Both the position numbers and the translations under genes were made by a program. Source: a virus. From it: a stretch of DNA of 64,000 nucleotides. Each line of letters begins with the position of its first letter. The stretch's first letter is position 1. Location: positions 1 through 64,000 of IMG/VR virus record IMGVR_UViG_3300038417_000475; one strand, given 5' to 3'. Shown here piece by piece: positions 16,405 to 52,539 of the stretch. The notes beneath the pieces are model-generated. The model did not search any database. It was not told the origin of the DNA and saw only the letters and a list, made by a program, of their open reading frames with translations.

Positions 16405-16808
16405 ACGAGCTGGTATCGCCCTACGTCGGATATCGAACTGACGAGTTCCGGGGCATAGGTGAAGGAAACGAGGATCTCCTGGAAGTCACCCGGCATGAGA
16501 TGAGGGAGCTGGGGAACCAGGATATCCCCTATACCCTGATACACCGGGGCGCTATCAGGAGCACGAGCGGAGTGAATGACTACCTCCTCCAGCTCTACAA
16601 GAGCAGATACAGAAAGTGTGTCTGGCTCTGCGACTCCATGGAGCACCTGATAAGCAGCTACTTTGAGCCTCCAGAGAAGCCCGAAGTGGTGACCAGGTGG
16701 GCGTTCTCCCCTGGGACGTGGAAGATCATCTCTGACCTCGGAGAAGAGGGCAAGCTGATAGCCTACCTGGGCGATCCCCTGGTGACTGAAGTGCCCGTAC
16801 CTCGCTAA
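16401..16808 (+). CDS. hypothetical protein
   Basis: GGAGG RBS, TTG start overlapping the upstream stop. Confidence 0.55.
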   Translation: MNELVSPYVGYRTDEFRGIGEGNEDLLEVTRHEMRELGNQDIPYTLIHRGAIRSTSGVNDYLLQLYKSRYRKCVWLCDSMEHLISSYFEPPEKPEVVTRWAFSPGTWKIISDLGEEGKLIAYLGDPLVTEVPVPR

Positions 16809-16916
16809 GTCGCAAAAACCGCCCCTATCTCCCAACCTGACCTAATCCCTTGCCAGAAGCTCCAAGCCCCTATCTTGCCCTTGTAGATCGAGCCACAGGT
16901 AGGAAGTTTTAAGAGG

Positions 16917-17474
16917 CTAGAGTAGAGTGAGCTGATTGCTTTGTTTGGGAGACTCAGCGCCCAGAGATAACTGGCAGGTGCCTTTGTTTATGAGGTTCAG
17001 GAGATATTGTGCATCCCTGTAGGCGCTTTTGCCGACATGCTGCCGTTTATTCCCCGGGTTCATCTTGTCCCGTAAGGCGAGGATCTTCTTGAGGTCTTCT
17101 CTTGTGAGAGGGCTTTTCTGCATGAGATCGAGGCACTGGCTCCAATACTGAAAGGTCTCCTTCTTCTTAGTATGAAGAGGGTGATTGTTGAAGAAGTCCC
17201 TGAGTACCAGACACTCCGGTAATGAAGACACTATATAGGTTGCCCTGGGCCACTTCAGCTTCCCATACCCGCTTGTATATCCCTTGGAATCTGGGACACG
17301 CCCGACGCCCAGCTCCTGGCATATCTCATGCAGTACCTTCCGATCTGATTTAGATAGCCAGATGCAAAATACTGGAGTGACAGTAAGCCTGAAGTTCTTC
17401 TTGTTCTGAGCTTGACACTTAATACTGAAGCAGCCCTCACCATCACAAAAGCCTGAAATCCAACCAGCAATCAT
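16917..17474 (-). CDS. free-standing LAGLIDADG homing endonuclease
   Basis: WISGFCDGEGCFSI motif; LGVGRV; PLHTKK...F..W. Confidence 0.9.
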   Translation of the reverse strand: MIAGWISGFCDGEGCFSIKCQAQNKKNFRLTVTPVFCIWLSKSDRKVLHEICQELGVGRVPDSKGYTSGYGKLKWPRATYIVSSLPECLVLRDFFNNHPLHTKKKETFQYWSQCLDLMQKSPLTREDLKKILALRDKMNPGNKRQHVGKSAYRDAQYLLNLINKGTCQLSLGAESPKQSNQLTLL

Positions 17475-17480
17475 GCTTCA

Positions 17481-17509
17481 ATTATAAAATTCTAAATAGT
17501 CTTTCGCAA
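17481..17509 (-). promoter_or_regulatory. sigma70-type promoter for a leaderless endonuclease mRNA
   Basis: TTGCGA-N17-TATAAT, with the ATG 6 nt downstream and no SD. Confidence 0.65.
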
Positions 17510-17569
17510 ATCGGAAAATGGATTTGCTCATCTCAACGGAATTACGAAAGACATTAGTCCACTAATGAC

Positions 17570-17598
17570 TTGACTACTTGCCTCGTATGTGATAAACT
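17570..17598 (+). promoter_or_regulatory. host sigma70-type promoter upstream of the sigma factor gene
   Basis: TTGACT-N17-TAAACT with extended -10 TG. Confidence 0.65.
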
Positions 17599-17692
17599 GG
17601 CAGGGTTGAAAGTGAGGCGCAAAAAATGCAAATTTGCAAAAAAAATTGAACACGAAATGAGCACAAAAATCATCGAATGAAAGTGAGGGACA

Positions 17693-18352
17693 ATGAGACA
17701 ATCAGCTACAAAAACAAGCACAGTTAAGCACGTCAAGCCAGTGAAGCCGAATTACAAGGCAATAGAGCGGGATACTCAGAAGCGAGCCATACCGCCACTG
17801 AGGGACATAGCTAAGATGTTCGCATCTGCGCTACCTCTAGAGGGTGATGCGTTCGGGCAGATGGTAGATACCATCGAGGCGCAACTGACACGCATGACCA
17901 AGAGAGACAAAACTAACTTGCTGGCCTTACAAACTGCGTTCATATTCGCCCACAAAGTTCCTCGTCAAAACCGTGAGGATGTATTCCAAGATATCTTCCT
18001 CGCCTTGTATCAGCACAAGGTTACTGACAACGGGCTGGCTTATGCCATAGCCAGAACAGACTGGGTTGACTGGTGGCAGTCATACAAGATTCGCTCGCAC
18101 TACTCGCTTGACAGTGTAGCGAATCAAGACACTGGTGACACGTTCGGGGATTTGCTCGTGGGTGTATGTGACTTTGAAGCGCAGATATGCGGAAAGATCA
18201 ACGGAGATCGACTGCTAGAGGCATTACCGCAGCGTATCAGAGGCATTGTGCAAAAGAGACTTGACGGACACGCTACAAACAAGCTGGAGCAATCTCAGCT
18301 AAGACGTTTTGTCGCTACTCGTCCTACAATCCTCGCTCAGTATTCAAACTGA
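17693..18352 (+). CDS. virus-encoded sigma70-family (ECF-like) sigma factor
   Basis: Region 2-like REDVFQDIFLAL...AYAIART..VDWW, SLD linker, region 4-like LEALPQRIRGIV..RL.G. Confidence 0.7.
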   Translation: MRQSATKTSTVKHVKPVKPNYKAIERDTQKRAIPPLRDIAKMFASALPLEGDAFGQMVDTIEAQLTRMTKRDKTNLLALQTAFIFAHKVPRQNREDVFQDIFLALYQHKVTDNGLAYAIARTDWVDWWQSYKIRSHYSLDSVANQDTGDTFGDLLVGVCDFEAQICGKINGDRLLEALPQRIRGIVQKRLDGHATNKLEQSQLRRFVATRPTILAQYSN

Positions 18353-18358
18353 GCGTGG

Positions 18359-18400
18359 ATTATGTCAACCTGACCTCAGCGATTAGTTAAGTGTGAGGGG
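18359..18400 (+). repeat. class A intergenic motif copy 1 (putative viral-sigma promoter)
   Basis: ATTATGTCAA-N6-CTCAGCGATTAGT. Confidence 0.8.
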
Positions 18401-19205
18401 TGGGGATTTGCTCCCACCCCTTACTCATGCCCATGTTTCGGCATGGGGTGGACAACTTAATACTGTCAGGGGTCATACTACTAACCTCGTTGGCTAGGAA
18501 AACGGCCTTACTCCCGCACACGTTCCTCTTGGGGATGGCCAGGGCGACTTGTCGCCCGGCGGGAGCGGTAAGGTGTCATGCTAACTTCTGGCGAGGGATA
18601 GGGCAGACAAGAGGGATACGTGCCTGAAGGTGCGACTTCGGGTCTACGGTGGAAACACGCCCCTCACAGGACAAGCCCCTAGCACCCTAGCTGTGCTGGC
18701 GCAAGCCAGTTACCTGACGGTCAACGGACAGGGATCGGCCTGACCTAAATCAGCCAAAAAACGTCCAAGCTCAGACGTGAAACAGAGTGAAGGGTGAGTC
18801 TTAGCCAGCACTACCCACCCAAAACCAAAGGGAGAAGTGGCTCGGTAGTGAAGACCGCAGCACGGCTGTGCTCCAAGCCCTAGAGCAAGAGCACACAGCG
18901 CAGTCCTGTACGGCCTCATGCTGCTCTCCAGCAACCCCAGTAGGGGCAATACTGGAAACAAGAGCACAAGGGGATAGGGCGGGATCGGGGCGGTAAGCAA
19001 GCCCCAAAGGCTGTAACCGACTGCGGTAATTCGTTCCCTTCATAGTCCTGAATGATCTACCGTGGCAACTCGTGGACTGTTGCATAGGACATAACTCTGA
19101 GGCACACGCTCCCTGCCCCAGCAGGGGGCACTCACTTCAAAACTTGCTTCGGTTTGTTTTGCTGTGACCCTGTGAGTCAAACCACGATTTGACTCACAGG
19201 GTCAA
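18395..19205 (+). ncRNA. candidate large structured ncRNA (~800 nt)
   Basis: No credible ORF; dense GC-rich stems with UUCG, CUUG, GAAA and GCAA tetraloops; begins right after the class A motif. Confidence 0.6.
19165..19204. repeat. perfect 17-bp inverted repeat
   Basis: TGACCCTGTGAGTCAAA-ccacga-TTTGACTCACAGGGTCA. Confidence 0.9.
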
Positions 19206-19230
19206 ATCAAAACGGAAGGCGGTGAGAACC

Positions 19231-19581
19231 ATGACCATGATAAACCAGAGACGGAAGTGCCTTATTTGTGAGGTTCGGCCTCGCTTTGACGGCTCTCCGT
19301 ACTGTAGGCCATGCCATGACGGTTTGAGCAAGGCCAGCAACAGACGGACGGCGGGTGATCCAGTGAAATTCCTTGTCTATCAGGGCAGCGTGGTCGGGCT
19401 GTTCCCGAACGGTAAGACCACAGAGGACGGACAGCCGCAGTTCTCTCCTGTTCTTCTCAAGAGAGACCCTGAGAAGCTCCCGAAGGGTAAGACCCTCGAC
19501 CTGAACACGTACCTAGAGGGGTACACACGAGCACAGATCAAGAAGCTCAAGGCAGCGCACAGACAGGCAGTAGCCTGCTGA
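19231..19581 (+). CDS. zinc-finger hypothetical protein
   Basis: CLIC...YCRPC; AGGCGGTG RBS. Confidence 0.6.
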   Translation: MTMINQRRKCLICEVRPRFDGSPYCRPCHDGLSKASNRRTAGDPVKFLVYQGSVVGLFPNGKTTEDGQPQFSPVLLKRDPEKLPKGKTLDLNTYLEGYTRAQIKKLKAAHRQAVAC

Positions 19582-19603
19582 ATATCGGAAAGGAGAGTGT
19601 ACC

Positions 19604-19810
19604 GTGGCAGTAGCGACAGCGAAGAAAGCAAAGGGCGCAAAGGGGGACAAGCCGAAGGCGGAGAAGTATCCCGTCAACCAGCTCATCGTCCTGTCGGCGT
19701 ACAAGAAGACCTTCACATCAGGGAAGGACGGCTTCTTCGGGCAGGTGCAAGACCCTGCAACTGGAGATCGCTTCCAGATCGTCGGCGCAGTCAAGATCAG
19801 CAAGAACTAG
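19604..19810 (+). CDS. small hypothetical protein
   Basis: AAGGAG RBS, GTG start. Confidence 0.55.
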   Translation: MAVATAKKAKGAKGDKPKAEKYPVNQLIVLSAYKKTFTSGKDGFFGQVQDPATGDRFQIVGAVKISKN

Positions 19811-19868
19811 GTCAACCCTGACCGCTTCGGGCGCACCTCGGTATGCGCCCGAATGGTGAGGGCTGAAC
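19811..19868 (+). repeat. structured repeat copy 1 (long bulged hairpin after a stop codon)
   Basis: GTCAACCCTGAC..TTCGGGC...GCCCGAA..TGAGGGCTGAAC. Confidence 0.75.
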
Positions 19869-23613: not shown

Positions 23614-23874
23614 ATGACACTGGTACAACTGCTGGACAAAGCCAACGAAGGGTATGATGACCATTTCCTGTCCGAGTTCTACAACAGGAAGACCGGCAAA
23701 TTCAAGCCGAGGGCCAAGGGGGATGGGCTGGCCCGCTTCATCGTTCTGGAGATCATGCAGACCTTTGACGAGAAGGCTAAGGATGCGGACCAGCTACAGG
23801 AAGCACTCAAGCTGATGGAGAACGCCAGGGATGATGTCCAGAGGGTAATTCAGGCCCTGGAACAATATACGTGA
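23614..23874 (+). CDS. hypothetical protein
   Basis: GGGGGTG RBS; GDGLARFIVLEI. Confidence 0.6.
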   Translation: MTLVQLLDKANEGYDDHFLSEFYNRKTGKFKPRAKGDGLARFIVLEIMQTFDEKAKDADQLQEALKLMENARDDVQRVIQALEQYT

Positions 23875-24155
23875 AGGGGTGACGTGATGATTTATCATTA
23901 TGAGCACCGCTATCCAAAAGAGATGAAGATGGTGCCTGGTTCAAAGAACAGAGTACAAGTGAATATCAAAGGGGAGAAGCGTGAGCAGTGCCTGCATTGC
24001 GGTAGCTTAAGATCATGTGAACATGATCTATGAGGGGTGAGTACATGATGGAATTATTTTGTGACGGATGTGGAGAGAAAATTGAGCAGGGGCAGGCGGT
24101 TGCCCGACATCTGGCCATATTCCGGCGCGCTTCAGTGTAGTCCCCCCCTCGTCAA

Positions 24156-24201
24156 ATTATGTCAACTTTGTCTCAGCGATCAGTAATATAGGGAGATTTT
24201 C
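24156..24201 (+). repeat. class A intergenic motif copy 3
   Basis: ATTATGTCAACTTTGTCTCAGCGATCAGTAATATAGGGAGATTTTC. Confidence 0.85.
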
Positions 24202-24417
24202 CTCTCCAGTATATGACTAGCAGTAATATCGCAGAGGTGAGCAGGGCTGGTATAAAGCCTTCACCCCTTCGGAAAGCCCCATCCAGAGAAAATCCTCGTC
24301 TCAGCTGGCCTCCACTCGACCATCTGAAATAACCGAGGTCTCGTGGATGGGGCTAACTGGGTTGTAAGGGTCTTCAGATAACAGAATCAAAATTTTGGAA
24401 AGGAGCGTGAAAGACAG

Positions 24418-39370: not shown

Positions 39371-39448
39371 TGGTGGCGGGGGTTGGATTTGAACCAACGA
39401 CCTCCGGGTTATGGGCCCGACGAGCTGACCTGGCTGCTCTACCCCGCT
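39371..39448 (-). tRNA. tRNA-fMet (CAT), CCA encoded
   Basis: Cloverleaf with 1:72 mismatch, three G-C pairs in the anticodon stem, TTCAAAT T-loop and 3' ACCA. Confidence 0.95.
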
Positions 39449-50220: not shown

Positions 50221-52539
50221 TTACATTTGATTGTCGATATACGTTTTCAGAAGCGAATAATTTATAAGTCCCCAACCGTAATCATTGCTCTTGGCTGAGG
50301 CATAATCGCCATATATCGACATCGCAGCCTTGATATGCTCCGTGGTCAGGACCTTCCCCTTTTTACGGGCATACTGGATCGCCAGGGCTGTCACGTATGC
50401 GGCATGGGGTGTGGCCATTGACGTGCCGGAAATCGCGGCAAGCTGCGGAGGTCCGTCTCCAAGCTGCATGGCTGCGATATATCCGTTGGAAGTCGAAAGG
50501 ATATCCACACCCGGAGCCACCACGTCGGGCTTGATGAATCCGGCTTTCGTGGGGCCTCGAGAGGAGAAGCTGGCTATGTTTCCGTGGATATCCACAGCTC
50601 CGACAGTCAACGCATCCGGTGAACAGCCGGGGCCTCCTACAGTCATCTGGCCAGGGCCGCTGTTGCCGGCAGCGATACAACAGATGATCCCAAGTTGCGT
50701 CATGGCGGTGATGGCCTGGCATTCCGGGTCATTCAGGTAATCATCGGGTTCGTCCCCTCCCAAAGACATCGAGATGATATCGGCTTTCCAGTGCAGAGCG
50801 TTCATCAGGCCGGCCAGTATCCAGCTTGCCATCCCTACGCCGATCCCGCCGCCCAGGACTTTGAACGGACGAACCTCTGCTCCCGGAGCTCCGCCCTTGA
50901 GCAACGCTCCTCGCGCAGGCCCGGCGAGAACCTTAAAAGGCCTCCCGCCGATGCAGGTGTTACACCAGGTATTGTGGATAAAAGCCATACCTTGTTTACC
51001 AGCAAGGTAATAAGGGCTTTCTGGGTCAAGGGTGAAATCATAGAGGAACCCCTTGAAGTCTATCTCCTCAACAGATTTGGGCAATAGGTAAGGGGCTGTT
51101 CTGTGAACTTCAGTGTAGAGAGGCCTTTTCAGCTTCAGGTAGGGAATCAACGCCTCGGTCATCCGGGTAAATCCTGCATCTACAGCAGATACTTGGTAAC
51201 AAACCTTCTTCCCTTTACCAGAAGGTTTCTGTTTTGTAAACCGTCCTCCAAAACCTAGAACACCGAACAGGCTAACGATTTGCTGTGCCAGTTGCCTTGA
51301 AGTAGTGCTAACCCTGCATCTAGCACGATCAGGGTCGAAATGACCATCACCATCTATGATCCCGGCCAGCACTGCCAGGAGTACATTCGTGGGTTGTTTT
51401 AAGAGCCTCTCCGGTATGGTATTCTCTTTCCGTCTTAGACCTAGCGCAATGAACTCTCTTTTCAATCCTGATACCTCAATGCTTCTACTCTTCTTGCGTT
51501 TTTTGGGAGTCCAAGCACAATAATGATAGCCGAGCTGCTTCAGATATGTCTCAATAGCAGGCCCTTCGTCATGGTGTAGAGAAAGGTTCACGGCACTGTG
51601 ATGGAAACAGCCCTCAGCTATGAACAGCCCTGCCAAGTAGGCCAGATCTGTATTCACAGTCTGTACGAAAGGCAGATTGATGATCTGCTCATTCGTAGCC
51701 AGACCGTAATTTCTATGGGACTGAATCAGGTCAGAAGCTCTCACATCCCTGTATCTTTTGCACCGTGGCTCATAGATTTTGAATGGATGCCACGGAGTTG
51801 TCACAAATTCAGATGTCCCGGCTTTCACTTTTATCAATTTGCCGTCGAAAGGAATCTTGTGTACAGCCAAGACCCTTACAGGTTTTCTGAAGCCGATCGT
51901 CCATGTGGGATCTACGGGTATTTTGGTAAATCCCAGTTCACTCTGGACCTCTGGAACCTTCAAATTCTCATAGAGGTCTTGGAATCGCACAAGGCCACAG
52001 AACGTAGTATAGACAAAGGCTTCTCCCTCAATGCAACCATGGCCGACCTCATCGAACATAAAAGGCTGGCCGGGTACCGATGATTTACCATGTCCGAAGT
52101 ATCCCTGGACCGCGAAATCCAAGGCTGTACCGGTATCGAGCACTGCAACTTTTACACCTTTGCCGGTGATACCGTCCGCGGCAGCTACGTCCGCTCCCAC
52201 CATCTGCCCGCTCACCGATGTCGGGATCCTCTCGTGCGAGGAGTCGGAGGCGGCATAAGCCATGGCTTTCGCCGGCCCCGTGATGGGGTTGGAGAGGAAG
52301 AGGTTGATGAACTTGGAAAACTTCTGATCTACCGGCATGGTGATGCGGATGGCCCGTATCTGCTCCGGTTTCACGTTGAGCACATAAGGCACAGCTTCTA
52401 TCGCCGCTACCTGGTTAGGCTGGATATCCACCTTCACAAAATTGAAATCGAGAGGAGCAGGGAATATACCCATCTTGGTCAGAGAAATGTTGACCTCGGC
52501 AAGATGAATAGGGTCTACCTGGACAAGGTATTTAGCCAT
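50221..52539 (-). CDS. subtilisin-like serine peptidase (S8) containing an intein (spliced product 417 aa)
   Basis: VAVLDTG (Asp), GHG|T (His), AAGNSG, SGTSMATPH (Ser); N-terminal I9-like propeptide. Confidence 0.92.
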   Translation of the reverse strand: MAKYLVQVDPIHLAEVNISLTKMGIFPAPLDFNFVKVDIQPNQVAAIEAVPYVLNVKPEQIRAIRITMPVDQKFSKFINLFLSNPITGPAKAMAYAASDSSHERIPTSVSGQMVGADVAAADGITGKGVKVAVLDTGTALDFAVQGYFGHGKSSVPGQPFMFDEVGHGCIEGEAFVYTTFCGLVRFQDLYENLKVPEVQSELGFTKIPVDPTWTIGFRKPVRVLAVHKIPFDGKLIKVKAGTSEFVTTPWHPFKIYEPRCKRYRDVRASDLIQSHRNYGLATNEQIINLPFVQTVNTDLAYLAGLFIAEGCFHHSAVNLSLHHDEGPAIETYLKQLGYHYCAWTPKKRKKSRSIEVSGLKREFIALGLRRKENTIPERLLKQPTNVLLAVLAGIIDGDGHFDPDRARCRVSTTSRQLAQQIVSLFGVLGFGGRFTKQKPSGKGKKVCYQVSAVDAGFTRMTEALIPYLKLKRPLYTEVHRTAPYLLPKSVEEIDFKGFLYDFTLDPESPYYLAGKQGMAFIHNTWCNTCIGGRPFKVLAGPARGALLKGGAPGAEVRPFKVLGGGIGVGMASWILAGLMNALHWKADIISMSLGGDEPDDYLNDPECQAITAMTQLGIICCIAAGNSGPGQMTVGGPGCSPDALTVGAVDIHGNIASFSSRGPTKAGFIKPDVVAPGVDILSTSNGYIAAMQLGDGPPQLAAISGTSMATPHAAYVTALAIQYARKKGKVLTTEHIKAAMSIYGDYASAKSNDYGWGLINYSLLKTYIDNQM
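50971..52035 (-). mobile_element. intein with LAGLIDADG homing endonuclease (355 aa)
   Basis: N-terminal CIEGE, TPWH, LAGLFIAEG and LAGIIDGDG, C-terminal IHN followed by Thr. Confidence 0.93.

Follow-up and report, generated by a model that had tools for sequence, protein, structure and literature searches.

Only a handful of non-coding RNA classes exceeding about 500 nt are known from bacteria and phages, and they have been either machines (the ribosome, RNase P and introns) or lasting puzzles, such as OLE, GOLLD and ROOL. A phage-encoded folded RNA may also be part of a machine, as is the phi29-type pRNA, which is held by a phage protein and is several times smaller than the RNA dealt with here. 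GOLLD is described in PMC12286853 as a phage- or prophage-borne RNA with many members above 800 nt, an ornate multi-domain fold and a function still unknown, its 3' region being universally conserved and its 5' region less so. ROOL is likewise encoded by phages and prophages and has a complex fold with pseudoknots, and neither a partner protein nor a function is known for it (PMC12286853). OLE, a structured RNA of approximately 600 nt, is described as acting with partner proteins as a particle (PMC12054373), and in the dCas12f-sigma-E systems of RNA-guided transcription an ECF-type sigma gene is genetically linked to a non-coding RNA (PMC12259090, 10.1101/2025.06.10.658880).

Here we describe a viral locus that invites comparison with all of these. 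The analysed stretch of DNA (the window) comprises positions 1 to 64,000 of IMG/VR record IMGVR_UViG_3300038417_000475, a complete viral contig with terminal repeats representing a genome of 85 kb. Positions 18393-19204 on the plus strand display the traits of the large ornate phage RNAs: the region is viral, approximately 810 nt long, non-coding and folded into several domains, and 95 of its 169 modelled base pairs show compensatory changes. Similarly to GOLLD, its 3' domain is present in every copy and its 5' part fades in distant copies. Unlike GOLLD, it has no Rfam match, no tRNA island lies in its vicinity (the sole tRNA of the window is at a distance of 20 kb) and it occupies a fixed place between two particular protein genes, which is undescribed for GOLLD. 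From ROOL it differs in the lack of an Rfam match, in gene context and in having constant protein-gene neighbours. OLE is chromosomal in Bacillota and non-viral, whereas the RNA described here is viral and unmatched in Rfam, and its protein partnership is suggested by gene order. The pRNA comes to mind because the best Foldseek rows of the downstream protein model are phi28 gp11 packaging ATPase, a weak likeness with no VIA-align match above Z 4; the RNA, however, is in the early/replication region, away from the particle genes. In contrast to dCas12f-sigma-E, the locus contains no protein of Cas12f or TnpB size (the neighbour has 116 aa), and the RNA, which greatly exceeds theirs in size, showed no identifiable guide-like variable segment. 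With group I and group II introns it shares the size range, the multi-domain fold, the long-range helices and a genome rich in homing endonucleases, but it matches no intron model, interrupts no gene and sits at a single fixed locus.

The RNA is found in the intergenic region 18353-19230, between a sigma-like gene upstream and a small zinc-ribbon gene downstream, and is present as a single copy in the genome. The preliminary description had pointed to the longest gene-free stretch of the window, and indeed the longest run devoid of any ORF of at least 100 aa on either strand is 18353-19188 (836 nt). The runner-up, 753 nt at 23665-24417, contains a conserved 86-aa ORF. At lower cut-offs two minus-strand ORFs of 94 and 96 aa appear inside the stretch, neither of them conserved. 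All six frames are interrupted in all copies, with at least five stops per frame in every full-length homologue, and a search for an ORF common to the homologues found none. Variable columns are distributed evenly over the codon positions in the RNA region (79/84/82, p 0.93), that is, without three-base periodicity, as compared to 66/42/142 (p 6e-15) in the sigma-like gene. The region is thus non-coding, and the conserved ORF that might have explained it otherwise was not found. Elsewhere the genome carries a LAGLIDADG gene (16917-17474), two of its ORFs have endonuclease domains of the intein type, and the locus stands at the head of a replication module encoding Ku, ligase, a clamp-like protein and an AAA protein.

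The same order, a sigma-like gene, 0.74-1.0 kb of non-coding DNA and a zinc-ribbon gene, is also found in seven other loci from metagenomes and two MAGs, and the three elements form a fixed conserved cassette. The zinc-ribbon gene follows the RNA on the same strand and always adjacent to it in the window, L008, L009, L010, L016, L017, L018 and L023, while the genes upstream of the cassette differ between loci. By blastn, identity in the non-coding part amounts to 70-84% over 550-700 nt in L006, L008, L009, L010 and L012, and this part is still detectable in more distant relatives; with an nhmmer profile the region was recovered in 11 of 11 metagenome loci that reach past the sigma-like gene, as well as in both MAG loci. 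L005 diverges from the RNA after approximately 130 nt, and the RNA gene looks interrupted there. Contigs of four sequencing runs confirmed presence and colinearity, and none of them joins across the RNA region. The lineage carrying the cassette comprises uncultured virus-like elements of approximately 50-85 kb from peat, freshwater sediment and groundwater-type metagenomes. No relative was found among GenBank phages and PLSDB plasmids by blastn of the RNA region, nor among IMG/VR viral contigs apart from the record itself, and neither the zinc-ribbon nor the sigma-like protein had a tblastn match in GenBank phages. Covariance model R1 (see below) matched one of the 151 sampled genomes in the class of G001, namely G001 itself, and the zinc-ribbon profile two of the 401 sampled genomes of its phylum (G001 and G508).

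The plus strand folds with a minimum free energy of -358.7 kcal/mol, as compared to -315.5 +/- 9.3 kcal/mol in 20 dinucleotide shuffles (z -4.63), so that the region is more stable than the shuffled controls against which it had been proposed to be measured; for the minus strand z is -4.07. Already in a plain MAFFT alignment of four copies, 51 of the 236 pairs predicted by RNAalifold showed compensatory change. Three covariance models, R1-R3, together contain 169 base pairs, and compensatory double changes were seen in 95 of them among 8-12 copies per domain, several of which are close kin. Paired cells amount to 91-94% in the models and to 30-45% when partners are slid, and none of 500 shuffles reached the observed values, figures to be read knowing that model-fitted alignments are biased towards the model and that the shuffle control takes no account of relatedness. 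The expected homologues beside related sigma-like genes exist, and they covary. G-U cells outnumber A-C cells by 204 to 27, which marks the plus strand as the one from which the RNA is read. Invariant unpaired bases are present at its junctions.

From the 5' end, the RNA begins with a terminal hairpin of 8-11 bp (18393-18424). The stem GAGGGGTGGG/CCCACCCCTT (18395-18422) noticed earlier is there and covaries among homologues; in L006, L008 and L009 its sequence is altered and pairing is kept. It is followed by a second hairpin of variable length (18425-18451; helices H5/H6). The proposed hairpin CCCATGT/GCATGGG is formed in the window and L006, and in other copies a shorter hairpin takes the equivalent site. 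Domain 1 (18466-18683, model R2) is multi-branched, closed by helix 18469-18473/18675-18679 and contains the invariant unpaired stretch TCATGCTAAC (18576-18585). R2 gave 12 matches in 13 sources, and of the cells at its 64 pairs 93.9% are paired (35-45% in slid controls), with 32 pairs compensatory. GGGCGA/TCGCCC, nested in CCTTACTCCCGC/GCGGGAGCGGTAAGG as had been described, belongs here and shows strong compensatory change (helices 5, 6 and 8), and GTG-GAAA-CAC corresponds to helix 10.

Domain 2 (18684-18842, model R3) consists of local hairpins, including one with an invariant loop at 18736-18756 (GGCCTAAATCAGCC). R3 gave 8 matches in 11 sources and has 37 pairs, 91.4% of the cells paired and 17 compensatory. 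The hairpin CTGGC-GCAA-GCCAG exists in the window; relatives have a helix of other sequence at the corresponding position, and in L006 its tip is deleted. A candidate pseudoknot, read off the sequences, would have 18792-18799/18813-18820 crossed by 18803-18807/18838-18842; its partner site occurs 35-39 nt upstream in nine of nine copies, the per-copy chance being 5-43%. The domain 2 closing helix of R3 (18686-18693/18838-18845) was rejected, as it overlaps the first helix of domain 3 and is in competition with a local pairing that has better support, 18803-18807/18838-18842.

Domain 3 (18843-19062, model R1), the most widely conserved part and the one present in every copy, is closed by helix 18843-18849/19056-19062 and has a long-range helix 18895-18899/19010-19014. 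R1 gave 10 matches in 10 sources, including L016, L017, L018 and L023; 94.4% of the cells at its 68 pairs are paired (slid controls 35-40%) and 46 pairs are compensatory. By comparison, domain 1 has no match in L023, and domain 2 is weakly detectable in L016 and L018. Two of the earlier proposals involving this domain had to be given up. The hairpin CCAGTA/TACTGG can form in the window and is not conserved, the covarying pairing being 18927-18933/18950-18956 together with 18935-18938/18943-18946. The suggested pseudoknot between TAGGGGC (18941-47) and GCCCCTA (18675-81) fails because both partners are engaged in other covarying helices (18943-46/18935-38 and 18675-79/18469-73), and the complementarity is gone in L008-L010.

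The 3' linker (19063-19135) contains a conserved GC-rich hairpin (19109-19116/19121-19128, H43), and a counterpart with a C-run and a G-run is found in L016, L017, L018 and L023. A weak A-U-rich hairpin with a single compensatory pair (19140-19164, H44) precedes the perfect 17-bp closing hairpin (19165-19181/19188-19204, H45), which was correctly recognized at the outset, covaries in L008-L010 and has no T-run after it. Two further pairings were set aside: RNAalifold long-range pairs 18353-18369/19088-19107, which are invariant and involve the promoter motif described below, and the invariant loop AGTCC (19044-19048) with GGACT (19074-19078), possible in all copies and dismissed since neither side varies.

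The Rfam 15 library, described as containing 4227 families, presumably includes GOLLD, ROOL, OLE, HEARO, RNase P, tmRNA, 6S and the group I and II introns. At the gathering score the tRNA at 39374-39448 was the only match in the whole window. With E up to 10, the only rows for positions 18200-19400 were chance ones and hairpin look-alikes that fell on the 17-bp stem, and with E up to 5 nothing was found in the RNA region of five homologous loci. ARAGORN, searching for tmRNA and tRNA, reported only a tRNA-Met (39371-39448). In the literature we found no described RNA fitting this kind. A set of 8,495 short candidate RNAs (29-151 nt) derived from IMG/VR 3 is reported in PMC10690425, and a fragment of our RNA may be among them. 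Covariation, folding energy, the lack of an ORF and the lack of an Rfam match all bear out the central proposal of the preliminary description, a large structured non-coding RNA outside the known families, and we are nearly certain that the locus encodes a genuine RNA, conserved and structured, whose family Rfam lacks.

A promoter-like motif at 18359-18395 (plus strand) presumably serves the RNA as start signal. The motif is made up of ATTATGTCAAC, six variable bases and a conserved block that ends close to the initial G of the 5' hairpin. It is the first of four same-strand copies (18359, 20785, 24156 and 26416; chance expectation 0.61), which share an aligned block of approximately 35 nt with a small hairpin after each, and the three others are found directly upstream of protein genes. 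The motif is kept upstream of the RNA in L005-L012, and related motifs are found in L015-L018. No terminator-like site was detected on the plus strand of 17400-19700, nor a U-run after the last hairpins in the other copies; the signature of an intrinsic-terminator or attenuator leader, a GC-rich hairpin and then a U-run before the regulated gene, was accordingly not found. For a T7-type RNA polymerase (Pfam RNA_pol) there was no match in the genome, in a search in which the control genomes also gave none.

The sigma-like ORF (17693-18352, plus strand, 219 aa) lies upstream of the RNA in all loci, and a sigma-70-like promoter match of its own is located at 17570-17598. Fifty relatives were found, and 19 aligned ones share the C-terminal end. 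Its earlier designation as a viral sigma factor would agree with the ESM Atlas neighbours, which are sigma-70 region 2 clusters (top "sigma-70 region 2 domain-containing", 0.97), and with the best, though weak, Foldseek matches, the ECF sigma factors H, E, L and K (E 0.2-3, for a model of pLDDT 62), but Pfam sigma families (region 2/region 4) were recognized in none of the 19 relatives. The zinc-ribbon ORF (19231-19581, plus strand, 116 aa) comes next after the RNA in all loci. A purine-rich ribosome-binding site lies in front of it (19214-19226), and in seven copies the gene starts with an ATG and a ribosome-binding site of its own. The zinc-ribbon protein displays CxxC, 11 residues and CxxC, then beta strands and a C-terminal helix, and 176 related clusters, all unnamed, are present in public metagenomes. 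Its AlphaFold2 model (pLDDT 72) had no convincing structural or RNA-binding match (Foldseek E at least 0.08; VIA-align all Z below 4); the best Foldseek rows were the phi28 gp11 packaging ATPase (E 0.08-0.4), with the phi29 ATPase C-terminal domain at rank 36. ESM Atlas gave no usable match for it, and for both flanking proteins a PDB sequence search was empty and Pfam and PHROGs returned no match. A 74-aa protein is encoded at 19597-19821.

In our opinion the balance tips in favour of positions 18393-19204 being the gene for a large structured RNA outside any catalogued family that acts in trans as a scaffold or particle, a mode of action which, taken for itself, we put forward tentatively, at slightly under an even chance. 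The RNA would be transcribed from the repeated motif at 18359-18395 as from a viral middle promoter. It is probably the sigma-like protein that works at this motif, in which case synthesis of the protein would have to come before the RNA. Transcripts would start with a protective hairpin and run on into the zinc-ribbon gene, as no terminator separates the two. The folded RNA would then function as an independent molecule: a scaffold to which the neighbouring small proteins bind, or an assembly of RNA alone, as with other large phage RNAs. The idea of partner proteins is drawn from gene order alone. A bolder version, in which the RNA is the core of a new kind of viral ribonucleoprotein acting on transcription with the sigma-like and zinc-ribbon proteins, or a self-assembling RNA-only cage of new architecture, seems improbable; if the ribonucleoprotein were real, the RNA might hold, time or redirect the sigma-like factor and the host RNA polymerase during takeover, and would be the third component of a switch of the sigma/anti-sigma type.

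A mere leader is less likely, and the idea of a giant cis-acting leader that stays in the mRNA and controls the timing or amount of the zinc-ribbon and following replication proteins we consider rather unlikely. Since no terminator precedes the zinc-ribbon gene in any copy, the RNA may never exist apart from the mRNA; the two are always adjacent on the same strand, each of the remaining three copies of the motif stands immediately before a protein gene, and the cassette heads the replication module of Ku, ligase, clamp-like and AAA proteins. Genes for ECF sigma factors and anti-sigma factors occur as pairs, and in one version of the leader reading the zinc-ribbon protein would, by analogy, be the anti-sigma partner of the sigma-like protein, with the leader gating the feedback. 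However, the strong ribosome-binding site follows the last hairpin within A-rich sequence, and no supported helix pairs with it, therefore no obvious on/off switch is visible. Domain 3, the most conserved, is 170-400 nt from the start codon, and we know of no bacterial leader or cis-regulator that approaches 169 conserved pairs in three domains. The same number of pairs and domains would not be needed by a primer, as plasmids use at their replication origins; a folded primer or R-loop-forming RNA of this sort would suit the position at the start of the Ku/ligase/clamp-like/AAA module and the orientation towards it, but the cumulative GC skew has a plateau at approximately 16500-19000 without a turning point, and no AT-rich unwinding stretch or repeat array was seen 3' of the RNA region. 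We regard such an origin transcript as still less probable than a catalytic or mobile RNA, which is itself very unlikely.

An element that splices or cleaves itself, or else a degenerate intron, folded for catalysis, would be consistent with the large multi-domain fold, the many invariant junction bases, the selfish elements of the genome (the LAGLIDADG gene and the intein-type endonuclease domains) and the seemingly interrupted RNA gene of L005. Yet no group I, group II or small-ribozyme model matched even with E up to 10, and the flanking genes are complete without the RNA: the sigma-like proteins align through to a common C-terminal stop, and the gene that follows is equipped with a separate ribosome-binding site and ATG. 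It also keeps to one fixed place in a single copy, no contig joins across it, and no reverse transcriptase (RVT_1) was found in the 85-kb genome, control genomes being positive in the same search. That there is no RNA at all, and that the region holds conserved signals in the DNA itself or an overlooked protein gene using an unusual code or frameshifts, is hardly credible. The minus strand also folds better than its shuffles and carries the two unconserved ORFs of 94 and 96 aa, but pairing is kept by compensatory changes, the G-U excess is specific to one strand, and the lack of codon periodicity and the stops in all six frames of all copies argue against a hidden gene.

The RNA of this cassette adds a further large class to those described so far, with covariation that is unusually clear from very few sequences. 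Its two constant protein-gene neighbours, unlike the situation in GOLLD and ROOL, provide an immediate experimental handle, and the 176 zinc-ribbon clusters in public metagenomes bring a much deeper alignment within reach. The RNA is moreover a marker of a lineage of virus-like elements with no member among GenBank phages, and for which IMG/VR yielded this record alone.

A conserved non-coding RNA with a three-domain fold is encoded on the + strand of this virus, within a fixed three-gene cassette that places it between a gene for a sigma-like protein (17693-18352, +, 219 aa) and a gene for a zinc-ribbon protein (ATG at 19231, to 19581, +, 116 aa). A large structured non-coding RNA is also what the preliminary description had proposed here. 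The source record is a complete IMG/VR virus of 85,151 bp with direct terminal repeats, and the window comprises its bases 1-64000. The candidate RNA (18393-19204, +, approximately 810 nt) is single-copy in the genome, and the GC content around it (0.56-0.59) is similar to that of the remaining genome. Its region was rightly described as the longest gene-free stretch: 18353-19188 (836 nt) is free of ORFs of at least 100 aa on both strands, a length unmatched elsewhere in the window, and the second-longest (23665-24417) contains an 86-aa ORF kept in the related loci L009, L010 and L018. Directly upstream of the sigma-like gene there is a free-standing LAGLIDADG_1 endonuclease gene (16917-17474, -, E 1.3e-16) within a low-GC stretch (approximately 17150-17750, trough of 0.39-0.48 vs. 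approximately 0.56), apparently a selfish gene of recent arrival. Elsewhere, an S8 subtilase ORF (50221-52539, -) has LAGLIDADG_3 and Hom_end domains at residues 375-450, which an intein within the gene would explain.

Fifty relatives of the sigma-like protein were found in a large protein collection. Two of them, the different proteins P0002 and P0004 (81 and 78% identical), are each recorded on a 1,842,687-bp contig, probably one and the same. Two integrated copies in a host chromosome are a possible reading, and the contig might then identify the host. JGI metagenome contigs, scanned with an alignment (A1) of 19 relatives, gave 13 loci. L004 is identical to the window and the L014 contig stops within the sigma-like gene; in all 11 remaining loci an nhmmer profile found the RNA region downstream of that gene, with blastn identities to the window, over 550-700 nt, of 84% (L006), 72% (L008 and L009), 70% (L010) and 71% (L012). 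A one-genome-per-species scan added L017 and L018, two contigs of one Dehalococcoidia MAG (G001), in which the sigma-like protein is 37-38% identical and the RNA is still detected by nhmmer. These contigs are probably binned virus-like DNA, since a search with the domain 3 model (R1) of 151 genomes of the MAG's class matched only G001 itself. A zinc-ribbon profile search of 401 genomes of the same phylum yielded one further genome, G508, where locus L023 has the order seen in the window (sigma-like ORF, 32% identical; a gap of approximately 900 nt; zinc-ribbon gene) and the domain 3 and domain 2 models match at the expected position. The full cassette is thus present in the window and in the seven loci with long enough contigs (L008, L009, L010, L016, L017, L018 and L023). 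Apart from the RNA, what the distant loci share is limited to the genes for the sigma-like and zinc-ribbon proteins and, at weak similarity, the 74-aa ORF that comes next; genes upstream of the cassette differ between loci, and replication-type genes (Ku, ligase, clamp-like, AAA) lie downstream. Neither the RNA nor its two flanking proteins had a relative in searches of GenBank phages, PLSDB plasmids and IMG/VR. Weak matches to tmRNA or permuted-tmRNA models (24-30 bits, gathering score 47) lie upstream of the cassette, by approximately 1 kb in L009 (4127-4237, -) and 5 kb in L008 (360-526, +).

A plain MAFFT alignment of four full-length close copies showed a compensatory double change at 51 of the 236 pairs predicted by RNAalifold. 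Three covariance models were made from close copies only and used to find and align distant ones, and the homologues covary. Domain 1 (18466-18683, +, model R2) gave 12 hits in 13 sources, with 93.9% of cells paired and 32 of 64 pairs compensatory; domain 2 (18683-18846, +, R3) gave eight hits in 11 sources with default filters (91.4%, 17 of 37), and domain 3 (18843-19062, +, R1) 10 hits in 10 sources (94.4%, 46 of 68). With the 3' partners slid by 1-3 columns, only 30-45% of cells pair and 0-14 pairs remain compensatory, and in each domain 0/500 shuffles reached the observed values, statistics that come from alignments fitted to the models and from few sequences, some close kin, with a shuffle control that ignores relatedness. 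Covariation is seen clearly in the long-range helix 18895-18899/19010-19014 (+), with ACAGC/GCTGT in the window, ACGAC/GTCGT in L008, ACGGC/GCCGT in L009 and GAGGT/GCCTC in L017. Of 1,544 cells, 93.7% are paired when the + strand is read and 82.2% when the minus strand is read; the minus-strand figure is lower owing to an excess of G-U cells (204) over A-C cells (27), and the RNA is therefore encoded on the + strand.

Not every domain was detected in every copy. The domain 1 model had no hit in L005 and did not detect its domain in L023; with default filters domain 2 went unmatched in L015 (where the contig ends), L016 and L018, its signal being weak in the latter two, and with filters off it scored 23 bits in L023 and 13 bits in L018. 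In L005, whose sigma-like protein is 77% identical, similarity to the RNA family is lost after approximately 130 nt, inside domain 1 (L005 3472-3602); the DNA beyond is unrelated and has a minus-strand frame that stays open as far as the contig reaches. Insertion into the RNA gene, replacement or a chimeric contig could each account for this.

The + strand folds at -358.7 kcal/mol against -315.5 +/- 9.3 in 20 dinucleotide shuffles (z -4.63), and the minus strand of the region also folds better than its shuffles (z -4.07). Most stems listed in the preliminary description are present and most are conserved, including the perfect 17-bp hairpin closing the region (19165-19204, +), which covaries in L008-L010. 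The CCAGTA/TACTGG hairpin did not hold: it is possible in the window, and relatives show two covarying helices in a different register instead. The pseudoknot suggested with it is not supported, each segment lying within another covarying helix and the complementarity being gone in L008-L010. A different candidate pseudoknot in domain 2 is moderately supported by sequence comparison. The helix 18792-18799/18813-18820 (+) encloses AGCCA (18803-18807), which would pair with TGGCT (18838-18842), the five bases immediately 5' of domain 3; the pattern returns with changed letters as TGCCG/CGGCA in L010, L012 and L023, TATCC/GGATA in L017 and TCGCT(C)/(G)AGCG(G) in L018. A partner site lies 35-39 nt upstream in 9/9 copies, the chance of a site anywhere in the stretch being 5-43% per copy by shuffling.

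A promoter-like motif of approximately 35 nt has four + strand copies, at 18359, 20785, 24156 and 26416 (0.61 expected by chance), each followed by a small hairpin; the three other than 18359 precede protein genes. It is kept before the RNA in L005-L012, with related motifs before the RNA in L015-L018 and ahead of the clamp-like gene of L017. We infer that it is a promoter and that the RNA starts near 18393-18397. The motif is one continuous block reaching a G-rich start, two copies ending TATAGGGAGA, and resembles promoters of single-subunit (T7-type) polymerases more closely than two-box sigma promoters; a Pfam RNA_pol search of the genome gave no match, nor did the control of the same search. 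In L017 (6637-6740) and L018 (6571-6720) the motif is duplicated ahead of the RNA, and a strong terminator-like hairpin separates the two copies. The third copy lies in a second stretch without any ORF of at least 60 aa (23875-24417, 543 nt), with a leader of approximately 260 nt before the clamp-like gene; there the portion 5' of the motif has a fold just slightly more stable than that of shuffles (z -2.27) and only the motif is conserved in L017. At the 3' side of the RNA, all full-length copies have a GC-rich hairpin (19109-19128, +), and the place of the 17-bp hairpin is taken by a different long hairpin in L017 and L018 and by none in L016. Neither the window nor any other copy has a U-run after these hairpins; no terminator is present, and a strong purine-rich ribosome-binding site follows within an A-rich stretch before the zinc-ribbon gene; therefore the RNA and this gene are most likely made as one transcript, whatever its later fate.

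The upstream protein had been called a viral sigma factor. Its ESM Atlas neighbours are clusters carrying or named for sigma-70 region 2; it has no Pfam match or PDB sequence match, and its all-helical AlphaFold2 model (pLDDT 62) has ECF sigma factors as best Foldseek rows at E 0.2-3. The predicted likeness makes "sigma-like" a fair name, while "sigma factor" is not proven. In the zinc-ribbon protein an invariant pair of CxxC motifs separated by 11 residues precedes beta strands and a helix. None of its 176 related clusters carries a name; many come from contigs 45-51 kb long, and some fall into MAG bins labelled Omnitrophota, Portnoybacteria or Patescibacteria. Its best Foldseek rows, to the phi28 packaging ATPase (E 0.08-0.4), may offer a weak lead; VIA-align gave nothing above Z 4.

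A non-RNA reading of the conserved region is less likely given the compensatory changes in three domains and the excess of G-U over A-C cells. It also shows no coding signal: the ungapped columns that vary among the window, L008, L009 and L010 are spread 79/84/82 over codon positions (p 0.93), against 66/42/142 in the sigma-like gene (p 6e-15), the copies share no ORF, and each frame of each full-length copy has at least five stops. A ribozyme or intron is also less likely. Rfam 15 gave no family at threshold, and with E relaxed to 10 it returned just hairpin look-alikes placed on the 17-bp stem; five homologous loci had no match within the RNA region, and ARAGORN found no tmRNA. Against an intron, no gene is interrupted, the candidate is single-copy, no contig from four runs joins across it and no reverse transcriptase match was found in the genome. 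A replication primer is likewise a less likely reading. The chief alternative is a giant cis-acting leader, with the zinc-ribbon protein then perhaps an anti-sigma-type partner, and it is favoured by the lack of a terminator between the RNA and the zinc-ribbon gene. That same feature counts against the preferred reading given below, as do the undetectable domain 1 of L023, the weak domain 2 of L016 and L018 and the L005 break.

As we picture the working of the cassette, transcription would begin at the motif when the sigma-like protein becomes available, the RNA would be co-transcribed with the zinc-ribbon gene, and it would act as a folded molecule, either scaffolding the small proteins encoded beside it or forming an assembly of RNA only. 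Synteny is the ground on which these proteins could be its partners. The RNA-only alternative is proposed by likeness to GOLLD and ROOL, for which one study (PMC12286853) shows such assemblies; the RNA described here is known from sequence alone. The literature searched and Rfam yielded no description of such an RNA, and the available part of the closest large survey (PMC10690425) has motifs of only 29-151 nt. As the preliminary description suspected, it belongs to no family known to Rfam 15, and we regard it as a new family among the large ornate phage-borne RNAs, set apart from the others by its constant protein-gene neighbours.
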